In this document: positions 8,821 to 64,000 of the stretch, in pieces
How the letters are laid out: every line of letters starts with the position of its first letter
Position numbering within the stretch: the stretch's first letter is position 1
NCBI GenBank assembly: GCA_965219095.1
Contig: CBDCMT010000001.1
Coordinates: 1,184,001 to 1,248,000 of the forward strand
Length of the DNA: 64,000 nucleotides
Origin: Bdellovibrionales bacterium
GTDB lineage: Bacteria > Bdellovibrionota > Bdellovibrionia > Bdellovibrionales > UBA1609
Direction of reading: 5' to 3'
Notes under the pieces: generated by a model
Told to the model about the DNA's origin: nothing
Seen by the model: the letters and a program-made list of their open reading frames with translations, nothing else
Databases searched by the model: none
Translations under genes and position numbers: made by a program

Positions 8821-8903
8821 GGCTCCTCCCGGGAATCTGTGGGTGAAAAGTAGCTAGAAATCCCCCAAAAAGGCTCATATTAATCAAAGCAAGAGTAAGA
8901 CAT
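8821..8903 (+). mobile_element. ISL3 left-end fragment
   Basis: GGCTCCTCCCGGGAATCTGTGGG matches the ISL3 ends at 34342 and 61644. Confidence 0.85.
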
Positions 8904-9270
8904 AGCTTTGCAACTCAAGCCCTCATTGTGACAAGAGACTTATCAGCTGTACAAGCCAGTCTTGGCCATACAGATCAACAAGTAACTCAAAAATATGCAA
9001 AAACTGTGGCTTTGCTAGAGAGTAATACTGTGAAAAGGTAGCAGATTTTCTCAAAATCAAATAAAGGCTGTGCAATCACGAATCAATCACAAACAACCTT
9101 TGTTTATTTTGTTCTGAGAAAAAAAGAAAACTTTTACTGATTTTGTCTCTCAAAAAATCACGAACACATCGTAAAAAGCCTCTAAAGAAATTTATCAGGA
9201 AGAGTTAAGTTACTGAAAAAAAAGACTTTTTTCGTCTTGAAAAAAGTCTTTCTGGAAAGATTGGTAGAGA
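8896..9270 (+). mobile_element. Partial copy C of the integrase-ankyrin element (integrase 3' end plus element terminus)
   Basis: Reverse complement of ~49951-50338; encodes HSFATQAL..LGHTDQQVTQKY. Confidence 0.88.
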
Positions 9271-9474
9271 CAAGTCAGAACTATCACAGTTTATCAATGA
9301 ATCTCTAGACCTTAGTTGATCTCAGAGGATCAGCGTGCAACAAAGCCCTCCTCAACAATAAATTATCATTTTTCTATGTCGCATCTTCTCATAAATTTCC
9401 ATTTCTAAAGTTAACTAATAGTCAATTTCTCATAGTAGCTTACTTGATAGATTAGAGATTGACAAGGAGGCAGT

Positions 9475-21594: not shown

Positions 21595-22473
21595 GGTAAA
21601 TCAAAAAGACAGGTCACTGGTTTAAGCCATAATAGTGACCCTAAAGTACTTGCAGAAGGAGGTGAGCTTTTCGAGATAAATTCTAAACCCTTTAGCTGGC
21701 CTGGTTTTTAAGGCCTCAAAGGAAAAAGCAAAAAAAAGATGTAAAATAGGATTTCAAGACTTTATTTATAAATAAACCAACAAAGGAGGAAAATAAAATG
21801 TATGATCACTATATAGCCGTAGATTGGGCACAAAGTAACATGGCCATTTCAAGGATGACAGGCAAATCAAAAGATATTAAGACTATGGACACGATTTCAG
21901 ATCTTGGAAATCTTCGTGCCTATTTAAAAACTCTGAAAGGTAAGAAGATATTGACTATCGAAGAGACTACAACTTCGATAGTGGTTGTATTCAGAATTAA
22001 AGGATAGTGTTGATGAGCTCATAGTCTGTGATCCTCTTCGGAACAAACTTTTAAGTGAAGGGGCTAAAACTGATAAAATTGATGCTGAAAAACTTATTTT
22101 ATTGTTACGCTCTGGCCTTTTGAAACCAGTTTTTCACTCAGGTGATGAATTCATTTACCTTCGTAAGATTGTCAGTGGGTATGAAGATGTGGTTAAAAGA
22201 GGAGTTCGTGTTAAAAACCAAAGATCAGCTCTGTTTCGAGCTTCCCACCTTGATGCTAAGAAGCAGACTCAATTAAAACGGGCGGAAGAGATATATTTGT
22301 TCTAGAAGGCTTAGATAAAGCTATCAGTTCTTATGGGGAGGAGAAAGCACGTTATGAAGCAGAGTTTAAGAGGCTAAGTAAAAAACACAAAGATATTAGA
22401 AATCTTAATAGCATTCCAGGAATTGGTTCTATCAAGGCTATCAAGATTGTAGCCAGGGTTGTAGTGCCTCACC
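21595..22473 (+). mobile_element. IS110-family element (frameshifted recombinase from 21798), truncated by element copy B
   Basis: YIAVDWAQ, IEE, KTDKIDA and L.SIPGIG motifs across frames; ~200-bp non-coding leader. Confidence 0.85.
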
Positions 22474-22662
22474 GAACCGAGGGGTTATTTTATATAACCT
22501 CTTGAAAACACTAAAAAGAGAATAAAAACAATAACTAACACTTCCTTGTTTCAGGCCAAATGCACACACTTTTTCACAGTTTTGGATAGTTAATCACGAA
22601 CAAATCACGAACAAACTCCTCAAGAAAATGGTAGGGAGAATAAAAACCGACCCACATAACTA

Positions 22663-24221
22663 GTCGAACGTGAAAAATTGACAAAAGCCTAGAATTTTTA
22701 TGCTGTATTCTCTTTATCCCTGTTACTTTCTATTATAGAGGGTTAAATATTTTTTCATAACTTAAACAAAACAGTAGTTTTCAAGAAGGCGTACAGGCCT
22801 TCTAAGCCATTTCAGTGAAAAAAACGAAAAAAGACGCAACCTCTAGCATTAACTTTCTAAAATTTTGAGAAGCTCCTGATAAAAGACAATTAATAGCATC
22901 CCCTTCTGACCCCAATAGAAAGTTTCTTCCCATACGAGAATCTGTTTTCATATGACCAATGATTGCCTCAACTGAACTTCTTCTTCTGTGAAGTTTTCTT
23001 TTGTAGGGACTTAATGTTTTACTCATTCCCCCAATATGAACATTAACTTCCGAAGGATGATGGTCTTTGCCACGATAACCTTTATCTACATACACATTTT
23101 TTGCCTTAACCTTTGTTAAGGATTCAACTTGAGATAAGGCTGGCTTTAAACTGTGAACATCTGATACATTTTTTTCAAATGACTTTACCCCTAAAACAAA
23201 GCAGTTTTTTGATGAAGTTGTCACACTCACCTTATTGCCAAATTCATATTTTTTATGGGCTTTACCCTTCCCTATGCAATAAACCTCAGGAGCATGAACA
23301 CTATACACCTTGTTCTTATTTCCTCTTTTTTGGTTATAAATTACACATAAAGATAAACATCTTTTTAAAGGTGAATTCTCTTCCAAGAGCTTAGAACCTC
23401 CTTTTCTTGTAACATCTCTTATCACACGACCTCGATAAGTATGAAGCTTTCTTTGCTGTTTTCTTGCTAAACGTATTTTTCTTGCATGAGCGTAACGAGC
23501 ATTTTTAAACAAACACGCCTTGGCCTTTCTTTTGTAGCTTTGACGTAAAACTAAACCCTCTTTTTGAGCCCTTCTAACTAAAGTCTTCAAAGCTTTGTAA
23601 TAAAGACGGCTGTCTGTAGGAAAAGCTATTGCTTTCTCTTGAACAGTTGTATCAACAACTACATTCTCAAACTCTTTTTTTTTACAAAACCCTCTCTCAA
23701 AGCTAAATCAATGGTTTCCTCTAAGAGAACTTCTATCTTCTAAGCCCCCATCCTCTTTCTCCAGTTAGTCAATGAACTTCTATTACAGGGATCTTCATAA
23801 GAATAAAAAGGCTGACCACAAAAATACTGCCATTGAGGACTCTCTTTGAACATTTCTATTGTCTTCTCGTCACTTAAATTATAAATGTATTTCAAGCACT
23901 GAAGTCCCACCATTAAACGAGTTGAAAGACCTGGACGACCTTTTTTTTCATCATACTTCGAACCAAAATCTTTATCAAAACGATCCCAGTCTATTTTATT
24001 AGCTAAAATGACAAGCGGATGCTTCTTATGAACAATGTCGTTTACTCTAAAATTAAGAGGGCTTCTCTTTTGTGTGCTGAACATGTCTTTTGGCCTCATC
24101 TTTTTTCCTTTCTGTTTTGCAAGGTTTTTTATCTGTTTTTCCACTTCCTTGCAATTATTTTTATGCAAAAATTACAAAAAAACAAGTGTTTTTAGCTGTT
24201 TGTGCATTTTTCACGCTCGAC
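22663..24221 (-). mobile_element. IS5-family element; transposase disrupted by a premature TAG at 23740
   Basis: IRs GTCGA.CGTGAAAAA; TAACTA on both flanks; KVYSVHAPEVYCIGKGKAHKKYEFG motif. Confidence 0.9.
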
Positions 24222-24340
24222 TAACTATGTTATGCTGTACTAGGTTTATAAAAAAACAACCTTCAAAAGGATACATGGCTGTTTGTCAAGGAAGTGATAT
24301 TTAAAGTGAGAAAATCAGTTACACAATTTAATTTACAGGA

Positions 24341-25369
24341 TCATAATACAGTTTTCTGACTTTGCTTTTTCAACATTATTCTCTTGAGAAAGTTTACTAC
24401 ATCTGAATGTCCTTTTGCTGTCGCCCCCATAAATGCTGCCATTATTACTGTCGTTCTGTATTTATTAACTTTAGTATCTAGATTTAGATTTGAAACTTCA
24501 AAAAGAACTCTTACACTATCGAGATGTCCGTAACGTGCTGCATACATAAATGCTGTTATTCCGTTATTATCTTTAGCATTTACATTTGAAACTTCAGAAA
24601 GAAACTTTACACTATCGAGATGTCCGTAACGTGCTGCATACATAAGTGCTGTCGTTCCGTCATTATCTTTAGCATTTACATTTGAAACTTCAGAAAGAAA
24701 CTTTACACTATCGAGATGTCCGTAACGTGCTGCAGACATAAGTGCTGTCATTCCGTATTCATCTTTAGCATTTACATCTAAACCTTTAACTTTAAAAAGA
24801 AGCTCTAGAATATCGAGATGTCCGTAACGTGCTGCATACATAAATGCTGTCGTTCCGTATTCATCTTTAGCATTTACATTTATTACTGGAAATTCGAGAA
24901 GAGACTTTACAAGATTTGAATCTCCTTTCTTTGCTGCATCTATAAGTACACTTTCTAAATCAGCACCATTTTTATTAAGAACTCTTGCAAAACTTAAATC
25001 CCCATTTTTTATTGCTTTCGTAAGTGCATTTTGTAGTGATTTATTATTCGCATTGGCTTTGTATGACAAAAGAAGCTTCGCCATTTCTTTTTGACCAGAA
25101 TTAAGAGCATATTCCAACATAGTTTCATTTTTATAACTAATCCTATAATTCACAGGTACTTCAATTTGACACTGTTCTAATATTTTTCTAAAAAGATTAA
25201 TTCTTCCTTCGGAAATAACTTCTTTTAACTCTTTTCTAAAGTATTTAGAGCAATCCACATATTCAGGATCCACATCTTCAGAAAAAGCAGGAAAGCTTAA
25301 GCTTATTAAAGCTCCCATGGTAAATAAAGCTATTAAAGCCTTCCTTATATTATTGTTATTTGGTTTCAT
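24341..25369 (-). CDS. Secreted ankyrin-repeat protein, copy B
   Basis: Signal peptide (..FPAFS); tandem VNAKD..G.TA.M.AARYGHLD repeats of 93-99 bp. Confidence 0.92.
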   Translation of the reverse strand: MKPNNNNIRKALIALFTMGALISLSFPAFSEDVDPEYVDCSKYFRKELKEVISEGRINLFRKILEQCQIEVPVNYRISYKNETMLEYALNSGQKEMAKLLLSYKANANNKSLQNALTKAIKNGDLSFARVLNKNGADLESVLIDAAKKGDSNLVKSLLEFPVINVNAKDEYGTTAFMYAARYGHLDILELLFKVKGLDVNAKDEYGMTALMSAARYGHLDSVKFLSEVSNVNAKDNDGTTALMYAARYGHLDSVKFLSEVSNVNAKDNNGITAFMYAARYGHLDSVRVLFEVSNLNLDTKVNKYRTTVIMAAFMGATAKGHSDVVNFLKRIMLKKQSQKTVL

Positions 25370-25458
25370 AACATCCTCCTTTTATTTGTGAAAGATATTT
25401 ATTTCAAACAGCTATCTTTCATTTTTTTGTTTTTAAGTCCTATTTTCTTATATTATTA

Positions 25459-47982: not shown

Positions 47983-48058
47983 GGCTCGGTAGCTCAGTTG
48001 GTAGAGCAGAAGACTGAAAATCTTTGTGTCGACGGTTCAATTCCGTTTCGAGCCACCA
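47983..48058 (+). tRNA. tRNA-Phe(GAA)
   Basis: Cloverleaf; anticodon loop CTGAAAA; GGTTCAATTCC; CCA end. Confidence 0.96.
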
Positions 48059-48304
48059 TTTCAGGAATTTCTCAAGATTTTTGGTTTTGTAAGTTTATAG
48101 AGCGGTTTTGCGTGAAGATATTGCAGATTTCGGTCTTTTAAAACAGGGTTCGATAATACAATTTTAGCAAGTCTTACTTTTTGTAAGAGAATTTTCGTTT
48201 AACTTCATAAAATCACAAGCTCTTCTAAGAGTTTGATAACCTTTTTTCTTTGATAAAAATACGAGTTTCTAGAGTAAAGAAGTTCATGGAGTTTCTTTAT
48301 CATG

Positions 48305-49463
48305 CCTAAAATCTCTCTTAGTTATAACTAGGTTTGAGTTTTTTCAACAATTTAAACGCCGAAAAAATTTCTTTTTGACATTTTGATACTTCGGCTAAAA
48401 TGATCTTATCATTTGCAAGATGGTAAACTTTAAGCTGATCAAGTGTTCTAAATAACTCTTTTTTAGTAACTTTTTTGTATAACTTTTCTTGATTCATAAT
48501 TTTATAAATATGAGAAATTAAAATCAAAGCTAAAAAGTTTATAAAAACACTTCCCTTCATTGAAGTGGATGATTTTACCCTACTTCTTTTTTCAAGAATA
48601 TTGTGCTTAAAAGATCTAAATAATCTTTCTATCCCATCTCTACTGCGATAAAGTGATAACACATCCTTCCGATCTAAGCCCCTTTCATTTGTAATAAAAA
48701 TAAACTTCCCCATTTCCATAACTGCCTCTTTGAGGAAAACTTCATCTCTTTCTATAGTAATAACCCTTTTATTTCTCTTCTTTACTTTAATATATTCTTC
48801 AGCACTTATTTCATCTTTAAAATCCTTCTCTGAAAAAATTGATTCCAAATATGACATTTTTCTTATCAACAAACTCTCCTCCCTTGCTCTTCTTTCTTTA
48901 TCTAAAAAAATATGCGCTACACACATAACTCCATTTATTTCTACCTTAGTCCTTACATAAGAATAAACATTTTCATTGTATAAAAAAGAGCAAATAGGTT
49001 TGCTGATTTCTTCATCAAAATCATAAACCAATTGTTTTGCTTTTCGTGTTGTAAAGACCAGTGGTAGGAGGAATTTTAGCCCTTTGTTATTCATTTCTCG
49101 TATATTTTCCTTGCTATAAAAGCTTCTATCCATAACAAAATAATTAACATTAAGTTTATAGTACTTAATCAGTTTAATTATGTTTTTTTAAAGTTACTAC
49201 ATCCGATATACTTCCAGGATATATTCTATAAGCTAAAGGTAGTTGAATAGAGTTTTTCTCACGTCTACTAATAATCCCTAAATTTGTTTGACCGAGATTC
49301 TTCTTGTCACGGTTATAGCTACGATCAACTAGTTCGTTATTTTTAGAATAAGAAAAAATGGATGAAATATCAAACATAACTGAATATTTATTGTCCTACT
49401 CATTAATCCAATTGCTAAAAAACACTTCAATTTGCTTTTTATTTTTTCCAATATCCAGAGCAT
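48305..49463 (-). mobile_element. IS1634-family remnant type C (frameshifted, 5' cut by IS256)
   Basis: FDISS, MDR.FYS and YRSRDGIERLFR motifs. Confidence 0.75.
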
Positions 49464-50055
49464 GAGGATGTCCCATTTCTCGGTGGAATTCTGTTCAAAA
49501 ATGGAGCAGATAAGAGGACTCCCTGGTGGATTTTTAAGTCCACCTAGGGTTTAATAAATATTTAGAATGAATTAAAAATTAAACAAAAGGAGTCCAAAAT
49601 GAAGAATACAAAAGAAAAAATATCAATTCAAGAACTATCGGATCACAAGGAGATTCAAGATGCTGTTCATAACTATATGAAGCATAGAATTCTTGACGTA
49701 ATCTACCGGATATTTAATGACGAAGTCACTAAGCTCTGTGGTCCACTATACGATCGAGAGGAAGAATGCATGCGAAATGGAAAAGCGATCCTGGGTCTGT
49801 TTATGCTCAAGGACAAAGAGTTTCGATTCGAAAGCCCAGAGTTAAAAAAGACGGAAAAGATGTCAAACTGCGAACATACTCTGCTTTGAGAAACTACGAT
49901 GTTTTCACTGAAAAGATTCAGAACCACCTTCTCCATGAAGTTTCAACAAGTCTCTACTAATCTTTTCAGCAAGACTTTTTTCAAGACGAAAAAAGTCTTT
50001 TTTTTCAGTAACTTAACTCTGCCTGATAGATTTCTTTAGAGACTTTTTTACGATG

Positions 50056-50159
50056 TGTTCGTGATTTGTTCGTGATTTTTTGAGAGACAAAATCAGTAAA
50101 AGTTTTCTTTTTTTCTCAGAACAAAATAAACAAAGGTTGTTCGTGATTTGTTCGTGATT
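50056..50159. repeat. Putative integrase arm sites: two TGTTCGTGATT doublets (third doublet at 55331-55352)
   Basis: 11-bp direct repeats at 50056/50067, 50138/50149 and 55331/55342; also in copies B and C. Confidence 0.7.
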
Positions 50160-50168
50160 GCACAACTT

Positions 50169-51296
50169 TCATTTGATTTTAAGAAAATCTGCTACCTTTT
50201 CACCAGTATTACTCTCTAGCAAAGCCACAGTTTTTGCATATTTTTGAGTTACTTGTTGATCTGTATGGCCAAGACTGGCTTGTACAGCTGATAAGTCTCT
50301 TGTCACAATGAGGGCTTGAGTTGCAAAGCTATGTCTTAAAATATGCGTTGAACGCCAAGGGAGCTTTAACGACTTAAAAGCCTTATTGTAACTTTCTTGA
50401 ACAGCATTATATTTGAGAAGGCCACCCTTTTTATTACAAAAAACAATACTGGAAGAATGGCTTTTAAATTTCCATTCAGTGAGTTTGTTTATAAGTACTT
50501 GAGGGAGCATGATCATTCTTGTAGATTCCTGTGTTTTTGTTGTTTCTGACATATAAGGGTCTTTAGTTTTATAGTCCCAGCTTACATTTCTTACAATTTT
50601 AGCTGTTTTTTTCTCAAAATCTATTTCACTCCATATAAGCCCACAAGATTCACCGATTCTAGCACCAGTTAAAATCATAAAATGAGCTAAGTACCAGTAC
50701 ACTGGATTACTGCCTTTTTTTAACTCTTCAAGCCAGTTTAAAATTTCCTCTTGTTTCATGTAATAGTCAGGACGTCTTGCTTTTAAAGGCTTATAAATGC
50801 ATTTTTCTCTATGTCTTTTTACAATAGGGACATTAAAATCAGCATCAATGTAATCACGCCACCATTGTAAGATAGAGCGAAGAAGCTTTATTTCTTTAAG
50901 CAGAGACTTTCTTCTTGGATTTTTTAATGTAGGATGTTTTAAAAACCAATCAAGCCATACATCAACAGCATGAGAAGAAAATTCGTTCATTTTGAATTTT
51001 GCAAGAGGGCTTTTTATGAAGTAATTAAATCGAAATTCATATCCTTGCCTTGTTGATTTTTTGAATTTTGGCAGACGTTCTTTCTTATATTTTTCAAGAG
51101 CCTCTAAAAAAGTAAAATCTACATAAGGATTTTTAGTTTTGTTTAGTCCTCTTTCAATTTCTGCTTTTTCTTTTTCATGCCAGAAAAAGGCATCTGATTT
51201 ATTTTCAAAGCTCTTGCTTTTAAATCTCTTTCCGTTGAGATAAATTTCAGCAACATAGAAAGCTTTGTTGTTTCTTTTACGTTTAGTTATCGACAT
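50169..51296 (-). CDS. Tyrosine recombinase/integrase
   Basis: TGARIGE (R), TKT (K), HILRH, LGH and QKY catalytic set; N-terminal arm-binding-like region. Confidence 0.95.
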   Translation of the reverse strand: MSITKRKRNNKAFYVAEIYLNGKRFKSKSFENKSDAFFWHEKEKAEIERGLNKTKNPYVDFTFLEALEKYKKERLPKFKKSTRQGYEFRFNYFIKSPLAKFKMNEFSSHAVDVWLDWFLKHPTLKNPRRKSLLKEIKLLRSILQWWRDYIDADFNVPIVKRHREKCIYKPLKARRPDYYMKQEEILNWLEELKKGSNPVYWYLAHFMILTGARIGESCGLIWSEIDFEKKTAKIVRNVSWDYKTKDPYMSETTKTQESTRMIMLPQVLINKLTEWKFKSHSSSIVFCNKKGGLLKYNAVQESYNKAFKSLKLPWRSTHILRHSFATQALIVTRDLSAVQASLGHTDQQVTQKYAKTVALLESNTGEKVADFLKIK

Positions 51297-51562
51297 GGTT
51301 TCTCCTTTCGGTTAATCCAAGCTTCAATGCTCTTTCGTCTAAAATAAGTTTTGCCTCTAATACGGCAAAAGGGTACTTCTCTTAAAGAAACCCAGTTTCT
51401 TATTGTACGAGGAGCAACACCAAACGCACACGCTAAGTCTTCCACAGTTATTAAATTGTCAAAGAACAGACTCTCATTTTTTTGAGAGCTAATAGTACTT
51501 TTTAGAGTACTATTTTGAGAATTATTTTTCAATGTTTTTTTCATTTTTTTAACTCCTTTCAA
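51287..51562 (-). CDS. Excisionase-like HTH protein
   Basis: LITVEDLA..FGVAPRTIRNWV...VPF.RI...F....IEAWI; overlaps the integrase start. Confidence 0.85.
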   Translation of the reverse strand: MKGVKKMKKTLKNNSQNSTLKSTISSQKNESLFFDNLITVEDLACAFGVAPRTIRNWVSLREVPFCRIRGKTYFRRKSIEAWINRKEKPCR

Positions 51563-51613
51563 AAAAAGCTAGAGAGCTTTTTAAAGCCCCCTAGCAGTTG
51601 ATTTTTTAGCCTT

Positions 51614-51842
51614 TTAAAAAGGCACTTCTTCTGTCTCGCTTTTTTTCTCTTTTTTTGACACTCTTCCTACAACCAAAAGCTCCCCTGAAACAGGCAAGCT
51701 TGAGAGCTTAAGAGAGAAGCCGTCTTTTGTTTTTAGAGGGAAGGCTACGCCCACCTTTAAAAACTCTGATTTTTCCTTACCGGATATGGTGAATTTACGC
51801 ACTCAAAAAAGCGTCGTAAATTTTACTTTTTTCGTTTTGCAT
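51614..51842 (-). pseudogene. Small protein with SSB-like acidic tail; 1-nt frameshift near 51803
   Basis: AAGGAG Shine-Dalgarno plus ATG at 51842; core KVGVAFP..DGFSLKL..LP; ends ETEEVPF. Confidence 0.55.
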
Positions 51843-52015
51843 TATGCTACTCCTTTCATAATTGATTTGTTATTTGTTTTTTGACCCTTTTTTACTCCTT
51901 TCTGAGCCATTAAAAAACTCAAGTTAAACTCAAAAAAAACAAGAATCTTTTAACCTGATAGAGAAAATTTTTAGCTTAAAAGTCCTAAAAATTTTCTCTA
52001 TTTTTTCTCCTCCCA

Positions 52016-52178
52016 CACCCCCTTTCCTCTTCCCACATCTATACACCCAACTCTGTGGTACCGTGACCACCCTCTCCCATACTAAAAAAAGTATGAGCGG
52101 GAGAGGGTGGTCACGGTGAAAACCTAAGGTTTTAGCAGAGTTGGGTGTGGGAAAACAAAGGGAAAAGGAAAGGGGGTG
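52016..52178. other. Long branched inverted-repeat structure
   Basis: Nested stems 52016-34/52160-78, 52043-55/52136-48 and 52060-78/52099-117. Confidence 0.8.
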
Positions 52179-52839
52179 CATGCAAGACATGTTTTTAGCA
52201 CTATAAGAAAATTCCAGAATTTTTTTAAAACCTTTCATAAAGCTCACTCCTTTAAGTTAAAAATTTGAAACAAATCTTGTGAGGTTTTGATCTTATCAAT
52301 GAGTACGGCTTGACCAACTTAACTGTCTTTCTTTTACTTGCAGGATTTTGTATCCAAAATAAAACAATATCTTTAAAAAGCTCGTTACATTCTTTTTACC
52401 TCCGATCTGTTTTTACAGAGTAGTTAAAAACGCTGAAGTTGGACCCATTCTTAAAAAGAAGTTCTCTGCTCTCCTTTTTGAAAGGTAAAAATTACATCAC
52501 TATAAAAAATTTATACAGTTTTTATAGTTTTAAAAAAAATAGTTTGTGTTTTAACTTCTTTATGATAGACTCACTTTAATGATTATGAAAACAAGGCCAG
52601 ACTGGAAGTCTAAAGTTAAGGGAGTAGGTGACAATTTTTGTCACCTTTTGAATTTTTTTTACAGTCTTAGAGGCTCAGCTTTAAATAATAAGGAGTTAAG
52701 CTTGGAATAGTTTTTGCTATATATAATTTTAGAAAGGTTAAAGCTCCTTACCTAGATATAAGAAAATAGGACTTAAAAACAAAAAAATGAAAGATAGCTA
52801 TTTGAAATAAATATCTTTCACAAATAGAAGGAGGATGTT

Positions 52840-53853
52840 ATGAAACCAAATAACAATAATATAAGGAAGGCTTTAATAGCTTTATTTACCATGGGAGCTT
52901 TAATAAGCTTAAGCTTTCCTGCTTTTTCTGAAGATGTGGATCCTGAATATGTGGATTGCTCTAAATACTTTAGAAAAGAGTTAAAAGAAGTTATTTCCGA
53001 AGGAAGAATTAATCTTTTTAGAAAAATATTAGAACAGTGTCAAATTGAAGTACCTGTGAATTATAGGATTAGTTATAAAAATGAAACTATGTTGGAATAT
53101 GCTCTTAATTCTGGTCAAAAAGAAATGGCGAAGCTTCTTTTGTCATACAAAGCCAATGCGAATAATAAATCACTACAAAATGCACTTACGAAAGCAATAA
53201 AAAATGGGGATTTAAGTTTTGCAAGAGTTCTTAATAAAAATGGTGCTGATTTAGAAAGTGTACTTATAGATGCAGCAAAGAAAGGAGATTCAAATCTTGT
53301 AAAGTCTCTTCTCGAATTTCCAGTAATAAATGTAAATGCTAAAGATGAATACGGAACGACAGCATTTATGTATGCAGCACGTTACGGACATCTCGATATT
53401 CTAGAGCTTCTTTTTAAAGTTAAAGGTTTAGATGTAAATGCTAAAGATGAATACGGAACGACAGCACTTATGTCTGCAGCACGTTACGGACATCTCGATA
53501 GTGTAAAGTTTCTTTCTGAAGTTTCAAATGTAAATGCTAAAGATAATGACGGAACGACAGCACTTATGTATGCAGCACTTTACGGACATCTCGATAGTGT
53601 AAAGTTTCTTTCTGAAGTTTCAAATGTAAATGCTAAAGATAATAACGGAATAACAGCATTTATGTATGCAGCACTTTACGGACATCTCGATAGTGTAAGA
53701 GTTCTTTTTGAAGTTTCAAATCTAAATCTAGATACTAAAGTTAATAAATACAGAACGACAGTAATAATAGCAGCATTTATGGGGGCGACATTAAAAGGAC
53801 ATTCAGATGTAGTAGACTTTCTCAAAGGAAAAGGACTGATATTGAAAAAGTAA
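52840..53853 (+). CDS. Secreted ankyrin-repeat protein, copy A
   Basis: As copy B; AAGGAGG Shine-Dalgarno. Confidence 0.92.
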   Translation: MKPNNNNIRKALIALFTMGALISLSFPAFSEDVDPEYVDCSKYFRKELKEVISEGRINLFRKILEQCQIEVPVNYRISYKNETMLEYALNSGQKEMAKLLLSYKANANNKSLQNALTKAIKNGDLSFARVLNKNGADLESVLIDAAKKGDSNLVKSLLEFPVINVNAKDEYGTTAFMYAARYGHLDILELLFKVKGLDVNAKDEYGTTALMSAARYGHLDSVKFLSEVSNVNAKDNDGTTALMYAALYGHLDSVKFLSEVSNVNAKDNNGITAFMYAALYGHLDSVRVLFEVSNLNLDTKVNKYRTTVIIAAFMGATLKGHSDVVDFLKGKGLILKK

Positions 53854-53975
53854 AGTCAGAAAACTGTATTATGAGCCTGTAAATTAAATTGTATAACTGA
53901 TTTTCTCATTTTAAATATCACTTCCTTGACAAACAGCCATGTATCCTTTTGAAGGTTGTTTTTTTATAAACCTAG

Positions 53976-55265
53976 TACACTGGAATTTTAATTTTTTCTA
54001 TGTTTAAGATTCATTTTCTTTTAATTTTAGCTATCCTTTTTTCTGTATATTGTCAATACAAGAGGCATTATGTTTTGCCATGAGGATTTTTTTTATGAAA
54101 GAAAAAACTAACCAAGGAGGGGTTATGAAAAGAAGAGTTAAAAAGAAAAGAGTCGAGATTCGATTAAAGAAGAAAGATGTAGAAGAGTTAAGTCATTTTG
54201 TAAAAAGAGCAAAAGCCAAAGCGAGAGAAATCATGAGGACCCATGTTTTACTTTTAAGCCACAAGGGTCGTTCTCCCACCGAGATATCAGAGTTTTTAGA
54301 CACGACTTTAAGAACAGTTCAAAACATAAAGGAGCGTTATAATTCAGGAGGAATCAAGAGAGCTCTTTATGATGCTCCTCGTCCTGGTCAGCCCAGAATT
54401 TTTAATGGGAAAGCCAGGGCTCATATAACAGCTTTAGCCTGTAGTAAGCCTGATGAAGGGTCTGGGGTTTGGAGTTTAAGGTTGTTGGCAGATAGGGCCG
54501 TGGAATTAGGTTATGTTGATAGTATTTCTCATACACAAGTTAGAAAGATTTTAAAAAAAAAATGAGCTCAGGCCCCATTTAAAACGTCAGTGGTGTCTGG
54601 GGAAACTTGATTCTAATTTTATTTGGCAGATGGAGAGGGTTTTAGATACTTATGAGAGAAAATACGATTTAAAAAATCCGGTTCTATGTTTTGATGAAAG
54701 GCCTTGTCAGTTGATTGATGATGTTTTGATTCCGGTTCCTGTCAGTCCTGGAAAAGAAAAAAGAGAGGATTATCATTATAAAAGAGAGGGGGTGTGTGTA
54801 GCTTTATTGGCCGTTGAGCCTTTGACAGGAAAGAGGATTGTGGAGGTGAGTCGTAGAAAGACGAAAGTAGATTATGCAAGGTTTATGAAAAAGGTGGCTG
54901 CAAAGTATAAAGGTTGTGAAAAGATCACATTGATACAAGATAATTTGAACACTCATAATCCCTCTTCATTTTATGAAAATATGAAAGCAGAGAGTGCTTT
55001 TGATTTAACAAATTGCTTTAAGATGATTTACACACCGAAGAAGGCGAGTTGGTTAAATATGGCAGAGATTGAGTTCTCAGCCCTTTCAAAGCAATGTTTA
55101 AATCGTCGTATAGGAAAATTCTCTAAGATGGAAAAAGAGATCACAGCTTGAGCAAAAAATAGAAATAAAAAAAGGATAAAAATAAACTGGCAATTTACGA
55201 ACACTAAAGCAAGAGAAAAATTTTCATCCTCATATAAGAATATGAAAAATTAAAATTCCAATGTA
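53976..55265 (+). mobile_element. IS630 element type D (frameshift at A-run ~54555; premature TGA at 55149)
   Basis: IRs TACA.TGGAATTTTAATTTTT; CTAG flanks; FDERP and QDNLNTH motifs. Confidence 0.9.
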
Positions 55266-56458
55266 CTAGTACAGCATAACATAGTTATGTGGGTCGGTTG
55301 CTATTCTCCCTACCATTTTCTTGAGGAGTTTGTTCGTGATTTGTTCGTGATTAACTATCCAAAACTGTGAAAAAGTGTGTGCATTTGGCCTGAAACAAGG
55401 AAGTGTTAGTTATTGTTTTTATTCTCTTTTTAGTGTTTTCAAGAGGTTATATAAAATAACCCCTCGGTTCAACAAGGGACTACGATCCTCTTTTAGAGGA
55501 GATCTCTGGTGGCACAGGAGTTAAGAAGAGCTCTGTTTCTAGAGCTTTTGTAAATTCCTCTAAGAAGGCTTTAGATGAGATGAACTCTAAGGGCTTGTCT
55601 GAGCATGAGTTTGTTTCAGTCATGATAGATGGGTAGGCTTTGGAGATCGTACAGTGGTGCTTGCTTTAGGCATCGACGTGACGGGCAAAAAACACATTAT
55701 AGGGTTACGAGAAGGAACTACAGAAAATTGCGAGCTGACAAAAGATCTTTTAGAGAACCTTGTTTCTAGAGGTATGGATTCAGATAAGGGCTATCTTTTT
55801 ATTATTGATGGTTCTAAAGCCCTAAGGAAGGCTATCAAGGCAGTTTGGGGAAAAAAGTCTGTTGTTCAACGTTGCATTCGTCACAAAGAAAGAAATATCC
55901 TCAATTATTTGCCAAAAGAAAGACATCAAGAGTTTCGCATTCGTTGGAAAAGACTTCATGGTTTAGTAGATTATGAATCGGCTTTGAAAGAGCATGAGGA
56001 GTTAGTTTGTTGGTTGAAACAGATCAACCATTCAGCTTTAGAATCTCTTGAAGAAGCTTGTAAGGAGACTTTGACTGTGATTCGTCTTAAATACCCCCTC
56101 CTTGAAAAAGACTTTACTGTCAATTCTATAGAGTCCATGTTTTCCTACACAAGGTATAGGACAAGGAGAGTTAAGAACTGGAAGAAAGGAGCAGACCAAG
56201 TGAGTCGTTGGGCTGCTGTTACTCTCTTTGATGCTGAGAAAAGATTTAAACGAATCAGAGGCTTTATGTATTTAAAAAACTTTAAAGAAAACTTAGAAAA
56301 AATGGTTGCAAAACAAAGAAAGGTCGCTTAAACATGAAATCGTCCTCTAGAATTCCACCGAGAAATGGGACATCCTCGTTTCCAGTCAAAGCTAAGAAAA
56401 ACAAAATACTTGATTTAAAACAAAAATCTTTCTATAAAGGAAGAAGAAAGTTTTTTGC

Positions 56459-56534
56459 AGGGGGTTAGCTCAGCTGGTAGAGCACCACCCTTACAAGGTG
56501 GATGTCATCGGTTCGATTCCGGTACTCCCTACCA
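56459..56534 (+). tRNA. tRNA-Val(TAC)
   Basis: Cloverleaf; CCACC-CTTACAA-GGTGG anticodon arm; CCA end. Confidence 0.96.
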
Positions 56535-56631
56535 ATCTTTCCAGCAAGACTTTTTTCAGTAAATTAACTCTGCCTGATATAGTGCTTAATGCAATCTAAA
56601 TTTTATCTATGAAAAGTTTAAAGGAGGCAAA

Positions 56632-57072
56632 ATGAAAAAAGGTAGTATTATTATTTTATCAATCTTACTTACTTTCAGTTTCCTTGAAAGTGTTTATGTA
56701 GGTGGTGGCTCTACTTTCAGAGTGTCTGTAAGTACAGAAAATCTTGACAATGGATACATAGAAAAAAAACTAAGTGACTTTTTTAAAAACTTTACTCTTC
56801 ATAAAGCTCAATACTCTGATAACGACTTTAATGAAATTATGTACTACAAAAGTTTATTTGAAAGAACATCTCGTTACGATAGAGCTATTTTTGAAAGGTT
56901 AAGAAGGAAGTTCTATGATTCTCAGGAAAAAATAGATGCCCCCGCACAAGTGCGGGGGCTTTACCTTACAGCTTCACTCGAAGCTGACCTGAACATGGTT
57001 TCCTTAGTACTCAACATAGCTTTTTATAACGGCTTGTATGTTGACTCCACTTTTTCAACACAGTCCAGTTAA
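56632..57072 (+). CDS. Hypothetical exported protein; 3' third probably replaced by mobile-element debris
   Basis: AAGGAGG Shine-Dalgarno and signal peptide; runs into hairpins and IS-like ends after 56934. Confidence 0.5.
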   Translation: MKKGSIIILSILLTFSFLESVYVGGGSTFRVSVSTENLDNGYIEKKLSDFFKNFTLHKAQYSDNDFNEIMYYKSLFERTSRYDRAIFERLRRKFYDSQEKIDAPAQVRGLYLTASLEADLNMVSLVLNIAFYNGLYVDSTFSTQSS

Positions 57073-57350
57073 GGAAGATTGTCGGTAAAATCGTTAGGAT
57101 TTGAAAAAGGGACTCCTCTGAGCTAAACTCAGGGTACAAAAAATGCCCTTTCTGAAAGTCTAACGGGATTACGGACATCCTCTCAAAGGCCTTTTAAGGC
57201 CTCATGGTTGATAGCTCCAAGCCCACGTCACAAGACAACGTATTCTTTTTTGGCATCTTTATAATACACCAAGAAGTTTCCGTGATTTTTTAACTTGCTC
57301 TTTGCTTTTTTTGACTGTAAAATGAGAATAGGTAAGGAGCGTTTTTATTT

Positions 57351-57557
57351 ATGGCCAAAAAGATTAAAGATAGGGTGAAACCAACACAAAAAACAAAAGA
57401 GAAAAAACAAAAATTAGGTTATGGAAACTGGCTTTTCCGTAAAAAAGGAACAGCAGCAGAACCTTGGCCAACAGCAGAAGAACTCTGGAATGATCCCGAA
57501 GTACAACAAGCAATTAGAGCTTATAACAAATTAGTTACAAAAAAACAAAGCTCATAA
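57351..57557 (+). CDS. Small basic hypothetical protein
   Basis: AAGGAG Shine-Dalgarno; 68 aa. Confidence 0.55.
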   Translation: MAKKIKDRVKPTQKTKEKKQKLGYGNWLFRKKGTAAEPWPTAEELWNDPEVQQAIRAYNKLVTKKQSS

Positions 57558-57586
57558 AACCAGATACTAGACTTTCATAATATTCT

Positions 57587-58219
57587 TTGGGCTATTCCCG
57601 GAATAGTTTTCATTCATTTTATAATAAACATAGGCCTGAAAGATTAGCAGCAACAGCTGTTAATCTTTCAGGCTGGCCTTATATTTTTACCCTTGTTTTG
57701 ATAGCGACTTTAACTTGGCTTCCTGCTGAATTAATTATGGAAACATGTAGTCTTGAGGGGCTAAAAAAGAAATTATTTATATTATTAATTGCATCATTAA
57801 TTTTTACGCCTGCTTTACTATTATTAGCTCAAATTGAATTCATTGCTAAGTGGATATTTCTACCAGTACAAGATAACTTTTATAAAAAATGTATTGAATG
57901 GGATAATAAAGAAGTTGTAATGACTCTTAAAAACGGAAAGACCTATCAAGGTCTTTTATGGAAATATCCGGAAAATCCAAAATCAAGACATGAGTCTCAA
58001 ACAATTTCTATAGTACCGTTTAAGAGTGGATACAGAAAAAAAGAAACAAAGGAGGTAGTCTGGAACACTTATTATCCTAAATATGAAAACCACTCTGATT
58101 TGATTGATATGGAAGTCATTATACCACGAACAGAAATCATTACTTTTAGAAAGTTTAGCCGTAAAACCTTTGAACATTTTGAGAACCAAAATAACTGTCA
58201 GCACAAAAAGAGGGACTAA
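57587..58219 (+). CDS. Membrane protein with C-terminal Sm-like motif
   Basis: Two TM segments, then VVMTLKNGKTYQGLL...EVIIPRTEI; start uncertain. Confidence 0.5.
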   Translation: MGYSRNSFHSFYNKHRPERLAATAVNLSGWPYIFTLVLIATLTWLPAELIMETCSLEGLKKKLFILLIASLIFTPALLLLAQIEFIAKWIFLPVQDNFYKKCIEWDNKEVVMTLKNGKTYQGLLWKYPENPKSRHESQTISIVPFKSGYRKKETKEVVWNTYYPKYENHSDLIDMEVIIPRTEIITFRKFSRKTFEHFENQNNCQHKKRD

Positions 58220-63882: not shown

Positions 63883-63959
<77 letters not shown>

Positions 63960-64000
63960 ACATCTGATGTGGTGTCTAAGATAACGCCCTAACACACTCT

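Follow-up and report, generated by a model that had tools for sequence, protein, structure and literature searches.

A small tyrosine-integrase element with an apparently relaxed preference for its tRNA-gene target and repeated insertions in insertion sequences of a Bdellovibrionota genome

Introduction

How does an element whose integrase belongs to a family that keeps largely to tRNA genes come to lie inside a transposase gene? The question is raised by positions 49951-55469 of a 64,000-nucleotide stretch of a Bdellovibrionota genome (the window; contig C2, 1184001-1248000, of genome G000, which comprises 3.11 Mb at 34% GC in two contigs, C1 and C2). A first-pass annotation, made from the letters alone, had described there an element of about 4.2 kb, excluding a passenger IS630, that carries a tyrosine integrase and spreads a secreted ankyrin protein. 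The element is real and repeatedly inserted, with most copies being relics, and it seems to have become less strict about its usual tRNA-gene target and to have entered other insertion sequences (IS) of one genome again and again. Its end falls at 55469 and its net length is 4,225 bp once IS630 is subtracted. Our preferred reading, to which we assign a probability of roughly 0.6, is that this is a relaxase-less integrative mobilizable element (IME), cut down from a MobC-type integrative and conjugative element (ICE), with an integrase of low specificity and a 7-nt crossover.

The components of this system and the classes to which it belongs are already known. What the locus offers is a well-bracketed case, found in nature, in which a family of site-specific tRNA integrases turns promiscuous, and 20 relatives bound to tRNA genes can serve as its controls. 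How ICEs trade site fidelity against spread thereby becomes open to experiment in vitro, for which a single 375-aa protein and five short targets would suffice.

Results and Discussion

Precise ends at unrelated sites

The element splits an IS256 transposase exactly between EVST and RDY, as first described, and 11 uninterrupted IS256 copies continue through this site. Each of these holds a single CAACAAG, the 7-mer that borders the element on both sides. The element ends are lambda-type att sites with a core and arm repeats, the latter being paired 11-bp repeats in direct orientation that flank both ends (Table 1); similar pairs sit between tRNA and integrase gene in relatives.

Both termini were compared with genome G000 by BLAST, a check that the first-pass annotation had proposed, and eight left and nine right junctions were found at constant positions. 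One of the nine right ends was matched over no more than 17 bp, and another two right-hand copies break off before the end is reached. Nine of the 17 junctions share a single register, 11+7 nt into an IS481-type inverted repeat (NF033577): five are left junctions, two are right junctions in one orientation and two are right junctions in the other. The remainder lie in IS256 (both ends), in IS110, in a second IS110-like transposase identified by eye, in a 38-hit IS-end repeat that we take to be IS982 (two junctions, possibly from one event), at tRNA-Val and at an internal att-like site, site B. The earlier claim of repeated integrase-type insertion at unrelated sites is thus supported by 17 precise ends in seven target types. 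The further copies that had been reported in the window are present as well, but as truncated fragments rather than complete elements.

The left end is identical to the final nine bases of tRNA-Val(TAC), whose 3′ end lies at 56526-56534, plus about 50 bp that still trail that tRNA. The sequence CCGGTACTCCCTACCA occurs once in the genome and 16 of the 17 junctions lie outside tRNA-Val, so that the element departs from a pattern of one tRNA attB and a tRNA crossover retained at each end. Site B, which is a core resembling that of a tRNA, lies 163 bp inward from the right end. Five of the seven columns of its spacer vary among nine copies, against 2/17 and 4/24 flanking columns, and at C1 380373 it is joined to a second left end, as in tandem accretion. 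Our guess is that site B serves as a built-in secondary attB.

At an otherwise normal IS481-type end at C2 642255-642274 one extra base follows the 7-mer, and a left junction at C2 1011655-1011674 carries the same 8-nt word; the pair is a possible scar of imprecise excision. Solitary palindromes of 22 bp, each formed by two IS481-type outer 11-mers placed head to head (TGTGATAGTTG/CAACTATCACA), occur at C2 4040, 1532912, 2216166 and 2384707. IS256 copies at C2 613384 and C1 238010 are broken by a different sequence 2-3 bp from the site used in the window, which suggests a hot spot.

A crossover of seven nucleotides

The crossover had been given as 6 nt (N6) and proves to be 7 nt. The base that had been assigned to the right end as its final C is T in 3/9 right ends and C in 6/9, and it matches the target base wherever the target is known. 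All 13 of the 7-nt words tallied start with YR and 11 end with YR, giving YR-N3-YR at IS targets; this tally excludes the tRNA, site B and one 8-nt word, counts IS256 once, and includes eight IS481 words that are not independent. The core motif CTAC is present on one side, at +4 to +7, in two of five IS target types (P about 2e-4), and CTAY, a motif picked post hoc, in three of five. The tRNA crossover word is found at no junction outside the tRNA. Independent support for a 7-nt crossover comes from the tRNA-Val element of another genome, G002, in which the tRNA 7-mer CCGGCAC is kept at attR in the same register, and which shows the ancestral, homology-keeping state.

Derivation from a resident conjugative element

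The first-pass annotation had placed the element outside described kinds and seen no conjugative remains, a view that was not borne out: the element is a deletion derivative of a resident MobC-type ICE. Positions 51452-52320 match, at 90%, an ICE at tRNA-Pro (C2 1797-1811k) that carries a coupling protein, a MobC-like relaxase and VirB4-, VirB8- and VirB2-like genes in open frames. The element retains exactly the last 24 coupling-protein codons and then switches to the ankyrin leader. Its backbone consists of integrase, excisionase (Xis), a small ORF, a palindrome and the coupling-protein stub, with the ankyrin gene standing in place of the transfer genes. The same stub-to-cargo junction recurs in three copies at different sites (the window, C1 378k and C2 2065k), which indicates that the minimal form itself moved. 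A fourth copy, at C2 2051-2055k, keeps coupling-protein residues 315-539.

The element contains neither relaxase nor mating-pore genes, the 24-codon stub being its only coupling-protein sequence, and hence lacks a conjugation module of its own such as those of Tn916 and Tn1549. A tblastn search with the ICE relaxase matched only two other loci, neither in the element. The absence of a relaxase had therefore been noted correctly; what had been missed were the stub and a palindrome resembling a transfer origin. This palindrome is 92.8% identical to that of the relaxase-bearing ICE and occupies the same position in both of the two other ICEs examined, with a CGTGACCAC stem at the equivalent place in the ICEs of genomes G016 and G002; no nic site was located in it. 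It is a candidate MOBC-type origin of transfer (oriT). The 10-nt loop of the first palindrome (51975-51984) is inverted in the ICE (C2 about 1799424-1799433).

The predicted integrase, excisionase-like helix-turn-helix protein (HTH_17) and ankyrin protein (Ank_2) were all found. The ORF described as having a tail like that of single-stranded DNA-binding proteins exists too, but differs by a +1 frameshift from its 75-aa counterpart, which is intact in the resident ICE. Searches of Pfam and NCBIfam returned no match to this small acidic-tailed ORF, its nearest named Atlas cluster being DUF736 at 0.83, which is a lead only; a role in binding single-stranded DNA is a guess. A 105-aa ORF over the palindrome was treated as spurious, having no Pfam match and being frameshifted in relatives. 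The ORFs of the element and their Pfam matches include no phage or satellite genes (primase or replicase, packaging, structural); PHROGs was not searched.

The element fits the relaxase-less mobilizable and low-specificity classes of IME and is not a stand-alone family. The alternative that had been named as a possible refutation, a deleted fragment of a known ICE with a single attB, is correct as to the deletion, but the copies occupy many sites, not one attB.

The integrase and its relatives

The window holds the only intact integrase allele of the genome, an allele on C1 being interrupted and altered at its 3′ end. Another assembly has a second intact allele as well as an ankyrin variant of 402 aa; each lies on a contig of 8,790 bp, and the two contigs are probably identical. 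The protein has a beta2-beta3 insertion of the Tn916-subgroup type, aligning with the best PDB match, 3NKH (E 2.4e-9). This insertion defines the IntTn916 subgroup, many members of which target tRNA genes (PMC8138268). Because the insertion is also present in tRNA-specific relatives of the window integrase, it does not explain the promiscuity. Nor was any special residue change found, since the protein differs at 5 of 88 conserved columns, as its neighbours do.

Of 301 genomes of the order, 18 have integrases matching at E ≤ 1e-60; apart from G000 itself these are 17 genomes of the same family, spread over three genera, and the best protein matches from other lineages are about 51% identical among the matches listed. 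At 20 of 34 loci in other genomes a tRNA 3′ end lies at most 300 bp from the integrase stop, usually with an arm pair between, and the window element has this family layout of a tRNA 3′ core, an arm-repeat pair and an integrase pointing at the core. The R arm of the G002 tRNA-Val element matches too. Whether the window integrase descends directly from a tRNA-Val integrase, that of G002, G191 or G210, was also considered, and quick trees do not support such an origin. In a related complete ICE of G016 (C1 about 871.7k), the left end lies at a non-tRNA, near-perfect inverted core around a YR-N3-YR 7-mer; departures from tRNA are therefore not unique to this lineage. A search for related loci in a genome-contig collection confirmed none of eight stretches, and a pattern search for the arm repeats returned 13 metagenome, no genome and two viral loci, none of the 15 with the integrase or any backbone gene.

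Proposed mechanism and its alternatives

If the preferred reading is correct, Int and Xis would excise a circle with the junction CCCTCGGTT-N7-TCYCTAC, and Int, descended from an integrase that would have targeted the tRNA-Val 3′ end, would re-integrate this circle at degenerate half-sites without the tRNA crossover. Insertions would survive mostly in IS copies, where they should be harmless. Copy number might rise by excision from a replicated chromosome arm, or by transfer between sibling cells through the relaxase and mating pore of a co-resident ICE, and later IS insertions, deletions and duplications would then fragment most copies. The ankyrin protein would be an exported cargo that diversifies by gain and loss of repeats.

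Several points weigh against this reading. The window copy is the only one that is complete with both flanks, and only one integrase is intact. The relaxase hits of the ICE fall below curated cut-offs (NF041423, 1e-8; PF13814, 0.009), the palindrome is only a candidate oriT, by position and conservation, and the small backbone ORF is frameshifted. In quick trees made without bootstrap, to be read with caution as to long branches (three distant rows were omitted from one), the branch of the window integrase is long, at 0.91 where the median is 0.2, and the protein groups, with an SH-aLRT support of 98%, with four others from the same genome, three of which adjoin pilin fragments, and not with the tRNA-Val relatives. 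The circle joint, 55470 to 49951, is absent among the 10 joints listed when four public contig sets from one study were compared with 48000-57500; contigs drop rare forms, however, and so its absence is no evidence against excision. Contig set X4 matched only 0.20 of words and was left out of this check, and set X3 has one joint of site B to a left end, which is the chromosomal arrangement at C1 380373.

A larger, still conjugative ancestor might have carried out the dispersal, in which case the 4.2-kb form would be a late product of decay and the scattered ends would be relics of that ancestor. The copy with the longer coupling-protein remnant demonstrates that a deletion series exists, most copies are fragmentary, and the left-end variants differ. 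Nevertheless, three copies at different sites have an identical stub-to-cargo junction and the complete window copy has perfect target junctions, and we consider this history unlikely. Alternatively, most copies could have been multiplied passively, by IS-driven duplication or composite transposition of IS481, after one or two integrase events. One pair of copies did arise by IS-mediated duplication, as those at C2 225k and 241k have 2,278 bp in common at 99.96%, IS included; in those at C1 7-10k and C2 2051-2054k a stretch of 2,885 bp that takes in the IS481 tip is 98.8% identical, and these two may represent one or two events. Moreover, 36% of genome G000 is present in at least three repeats. 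Segmental duplication, which the first-pass annotation had named as a possible refutation, thus holds for the first of these pairs, but not for all copies, and precise ends are found in IS256, two IS110 types, the IS-end repeat, tRNA-Val and site B. The IS481 matches occur in both orientations and in several subtypes of the inverted repeat, of whose roughly 26 bp only the outer 18 remain after the split. With five non-IS481 target types and a split repeat that lacks the inner conserved part, composite IS481 transposition is unlikely to be the general cause, and passive multiplication as a whole seems to us highly improbable.

A different difficulty is posed by the crossover words. Mismatched insertion of ICEBs1 and Tn1549 leaves different words at the two ends (PMC3715440, PMC5871717), and the standard heteroduplex model likewise predicts unlike 7-mers, whereas the one complete insertion in our genome has the target 7-mer twice. 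Under the preferred reading, repair or a second hop must be assumed. As to such a hop, the integrase of phage mv4 takes any 7-mer provided that both sites match (10.1101/2023.11.06.565760). The repeated word could be explained by repair, by a second hop between IS256 copies with matching words, or by a true 7-bp target duplication, in which a single-strand exchange is resolved by replication, as for integrons and strand-biased elements, and the element would be a replicative transposon. In favor of duplication, right ends at known non-IS481 targets also carry the target 7-mer (IS110 7/7, the IS-end repeat 7/7, the second IS110 type 6/7), and the tRNA crossover is confined to the tRNA. However, there is a single complete case, the IS481 junctions cannot tell donor from target, and arm sites together with Xis constitute the anatomy of ordinary two-strand heterobivalent integrases, which leaves a replicative route quite unlikely in our judgment. 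A tentative extension, which we hold to be possible but doubtful, is that the 7-nt crossover acts as a rewritable address: the integrase would need little core and favor a matching 7-mer, such that an IS-derived 7-mer steers the circle to other IS481, IS256 or IS110 copies. Such an address would explain the target 7-mer at both ends as well as the nine matches at one nucleotide of the IS481 repeat, and, if it exists, a tRNA-specific ICE integrase would in nature have given rise to a transposon that hops between IS copies while enlarging and varying a family of secreted ankyrin proteins.

Comparison with known systems

The element would work like a low-specificity IME and is built like a mobilizable genomic island (MGI) or iOriT; it is neither a Tn916-type conjugative transposon nor a RAGE. 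Relaxase-less IMEs (the MGIs of SXT/R391 and ICEKp1, and iOriT) combine an integrase and a directionality factor with att sites and a copy resembling the oriT of an ICE in the same cell, and they lack relaxase and mating pore (PMC5704250; 10.64898/2026.01.13.699239); in the window element the palindrome is a candidate for that copy. At its size, the window element stands at their reported lower limit of roughly 4 kb (same sources). MGIs and iOriT are mostly site-specific, and iOriT elements are unrelated to the helper beyond oriT (10.64898/2026.01.13.699239), whereas the window element is a deletion derivative of the helper backbone at many sites. It does have its own integrase and att-delimited ends, as a relaxase-less IME should.

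Tn5520, Tn4555 and MTnPi1-3 encode their own relaxase. They also have a tyrosine integrase and several copies at different chromosomal places, with 2-6 copies per genome for Tn5520/Tn4555-type IMEs (PMC5704250). Their targets are AT-rich regions or one preferred locus (PMC5704250), unlike the tRNA-like half-site within IS that is used here. The integrases of Tn916 and Tn1549 share with ours arm binding, the beta2-beta3 insertion, Xis, direct arm repeats and site-varying crossovers that include 8-nt variants (PMC5871717, PMC8138268, PMC5812530), although the Tn1549 Int chain 6EN0 is only distantly similar (E 6.5e-5). Unlike these transposons, the window element lacks A-tract ends and has a tRNA-derived core; in place of AT-rich targets with a donor-derived coupling sequence at one end, a CTAY half-site is kept and the target 7-mer stands at both ends of the one complete copy (n=1).

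ICEBs1 and phage mv4 are similar in that their integrases target tRNA genes, with a 7-bp crossover and degenerate cores (PMC3715440; 10.1101/2023.11.06.565760), and ICEBs1 can enter one site in either orientation (PMC3715440). Their secondary sites are low-frequency laboratory outcomes with poor excision (PMC3715440; 10.1101/2023.11.06.565760), whereas in this natural genome non-tRNA sites account for 16/17 junctions. No paper was found on this element, on IS481-repeat targeting by a tyrosine recombinase, on ankyrin-bearing ICEs of Bdellovibrionota, or on the combination of a tRNA-derived core with IS-dominated targets and target-derived crossovers, in a literature search whose coverage stopped short of subscription papers.

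The ankyrin cargo

As claimed at first, the element amplifies its ankyrin gene. Pfam identifies 13 ankyrin loci in the genome (our own grouping of 45 matches), and 10 of these belong to the family of this element, with five intact ORFs of 337, 342, 368, 493 and 496 aa. A small hitchhiking element supplies most ankyrin loci of a probably host-associated bacterium, in a miniature parallel to the RAGE of Orientia tsutsugamushi, an amplified and decaying ICE that multiplies ankyrin cargo (PMC10732058). RAGE is a large F-type ICE without identifiable integration sites in Orientia (PMC10732058), and the window element has neither an F-type tra cluster nor multiple cargo families. The Ankyphage protein ANKp is likewise an ankyrin-only protein with a signal peptide on a mobile element, although that element is a phage (10.1101/608950), and the likeness to both RAGE and ANKp is one of description.

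A single-sequence model of the ankyrin protein has helix-pair repeats throughout (pLDDT 79) and no second domain. Its basic-hydrophobic N-terminus and a hydropathy scan point to a probable Sec signal peptide. By analogy with ANKp and RAGE cargo, a role in host interaction, as an effector, may be envisaged. No purifying selection was detected on the N-terminus (dN 0.069-0.108 against dS 0.062-0.132 for three distinct alleles among the five intact genes), and values of dN close to dS fit drift or diversification rather than strong conservation. The N-terminal 123 aa have one match among 102 candidates. NCBIfam matches to Legionella Ank families were set aside, as they lie far below cut-offs and reflect generic repeats.

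Ankyrin genes are also present in four of five relatives searched, which makes ankyrin richness a trait of the clade. Pieces of the ankyrin leader lie near unrelated genes at C1 53737-54014, C2 206831-208355, C2 534646-534713 and C1 678664-678867, several with export-like N-termini. In genome G017 (C26 4046-8039), four ankyrin genes lie 3-7 kb from a related integrase; this cluster was dropped as a second such element when no xis, backbone gene or arm pair was found.

Features of the element and its surroundings

The passenger IS630 proper spans 53976-55265, with CTAG duplicated around it. Table 1 lists the features of the element in order, followed by the other copies in the window.

Table 1. 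Coordinates of the element, its target and related features in the window.
Feature	Position	Strand	Evidence
IS256 left half (target, outside element)	49464-49943	+	99.6% to uninterrupted copy C2 1623647-1624133; PF00872 transposase on right half
Left 7-nt crossover CAACAAG = IS256 target sequence	49944-49950	+	Junction alignment
Left core site TCTCTACTA; TC(C/T)CTACCA in other copies; = tRNA-Val 3′ end	49951-49959	+	8 left ends aligned
Two pairs of 11-bp direct repeats TGTTCGTGATT, putative integrase arm sites	50056-50077, 50138-50159	+	Repeat scan
Tyrosine integrase, 375 aa, intact R-K-H-R-H-Y	50169-51296	-	PF00589 1.6e-22
Excisionase-like HTH protein, 84 aa	51287-51541	-	PF12728 1.1e-10; TIGR01764 2e-4, below cut-off
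Small acidic-tailed ICE-backbone ORF, frameshifted here	51614-51842	-	Intact 75-aa form in tRNA-Pro ICE
Nested palindromes: 17-bp arms 51958-52001, long hairpin 52016-52178; candidate MOBC-type oriT	51958-52178	.	Inverted-repeat scan
Last 24 codons of type IV coupling protein gene = deletion junction	52244-52318	-	100% aa identity to ICE residues 519-542
Ankyrin-repeat protein, 337 aa, probable Sec signal peptide	52840-53853	+	PF12796 8e-55; hydropathy
Passenger IS630 with duplicated CTAG	53972-55269	+	Other copies without it
Internal att-like site B: TCGGTT-GCTATTC-TCCCTACCA	55294-55315	+	10 copies
Right arm-repeat pair	55331-55352	+	Repeat scan
Right core end AACCCCTCGGTT	55458-55469	+	9 right ends end here; resembles R arm of G002 tRNA-Val element
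Right 7-nt crossover CAACAAG	55470-55476	+	Junction alignment
IS256 right half	55477-56378	+	PF00872
tRNA-Val(TAC), then about 60 bp of element left end; putative primary site, crossover CCGGTAC	56459-56587	+	
Truncated copy: left end and integrase 3′ tip, 11+7 nt inside IS481-type inverted repeat	8896-9288	-	
Truncated copy with an intact 342-aa ankyrin gene and an inserted IS; its right end, with crossover CGGTGAG, lies in IS110 (PF01548 transposase), and its left part is lost	22468-25453	-	

The genes past the tRNA-Val scar (56632-58219) have a 95% copy at C2 1031852-1033516, near a second relaxase locus, and are probably residual ICE cargo. ARAGORN predicts 34 tRNAs in G000, with no tmRNA and no tRNA-Ala(GGC). 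At C1 607.9k a tRNA-like 3′ core without its tRNA adjoins a 53% integrase, and at 63883-64000 of the window and past its edge (C2 1248320-1249259) a tRNA-Arg lies with a truncated 36% relative of the integrase, xis and the small ORF, another decayed member of the family.

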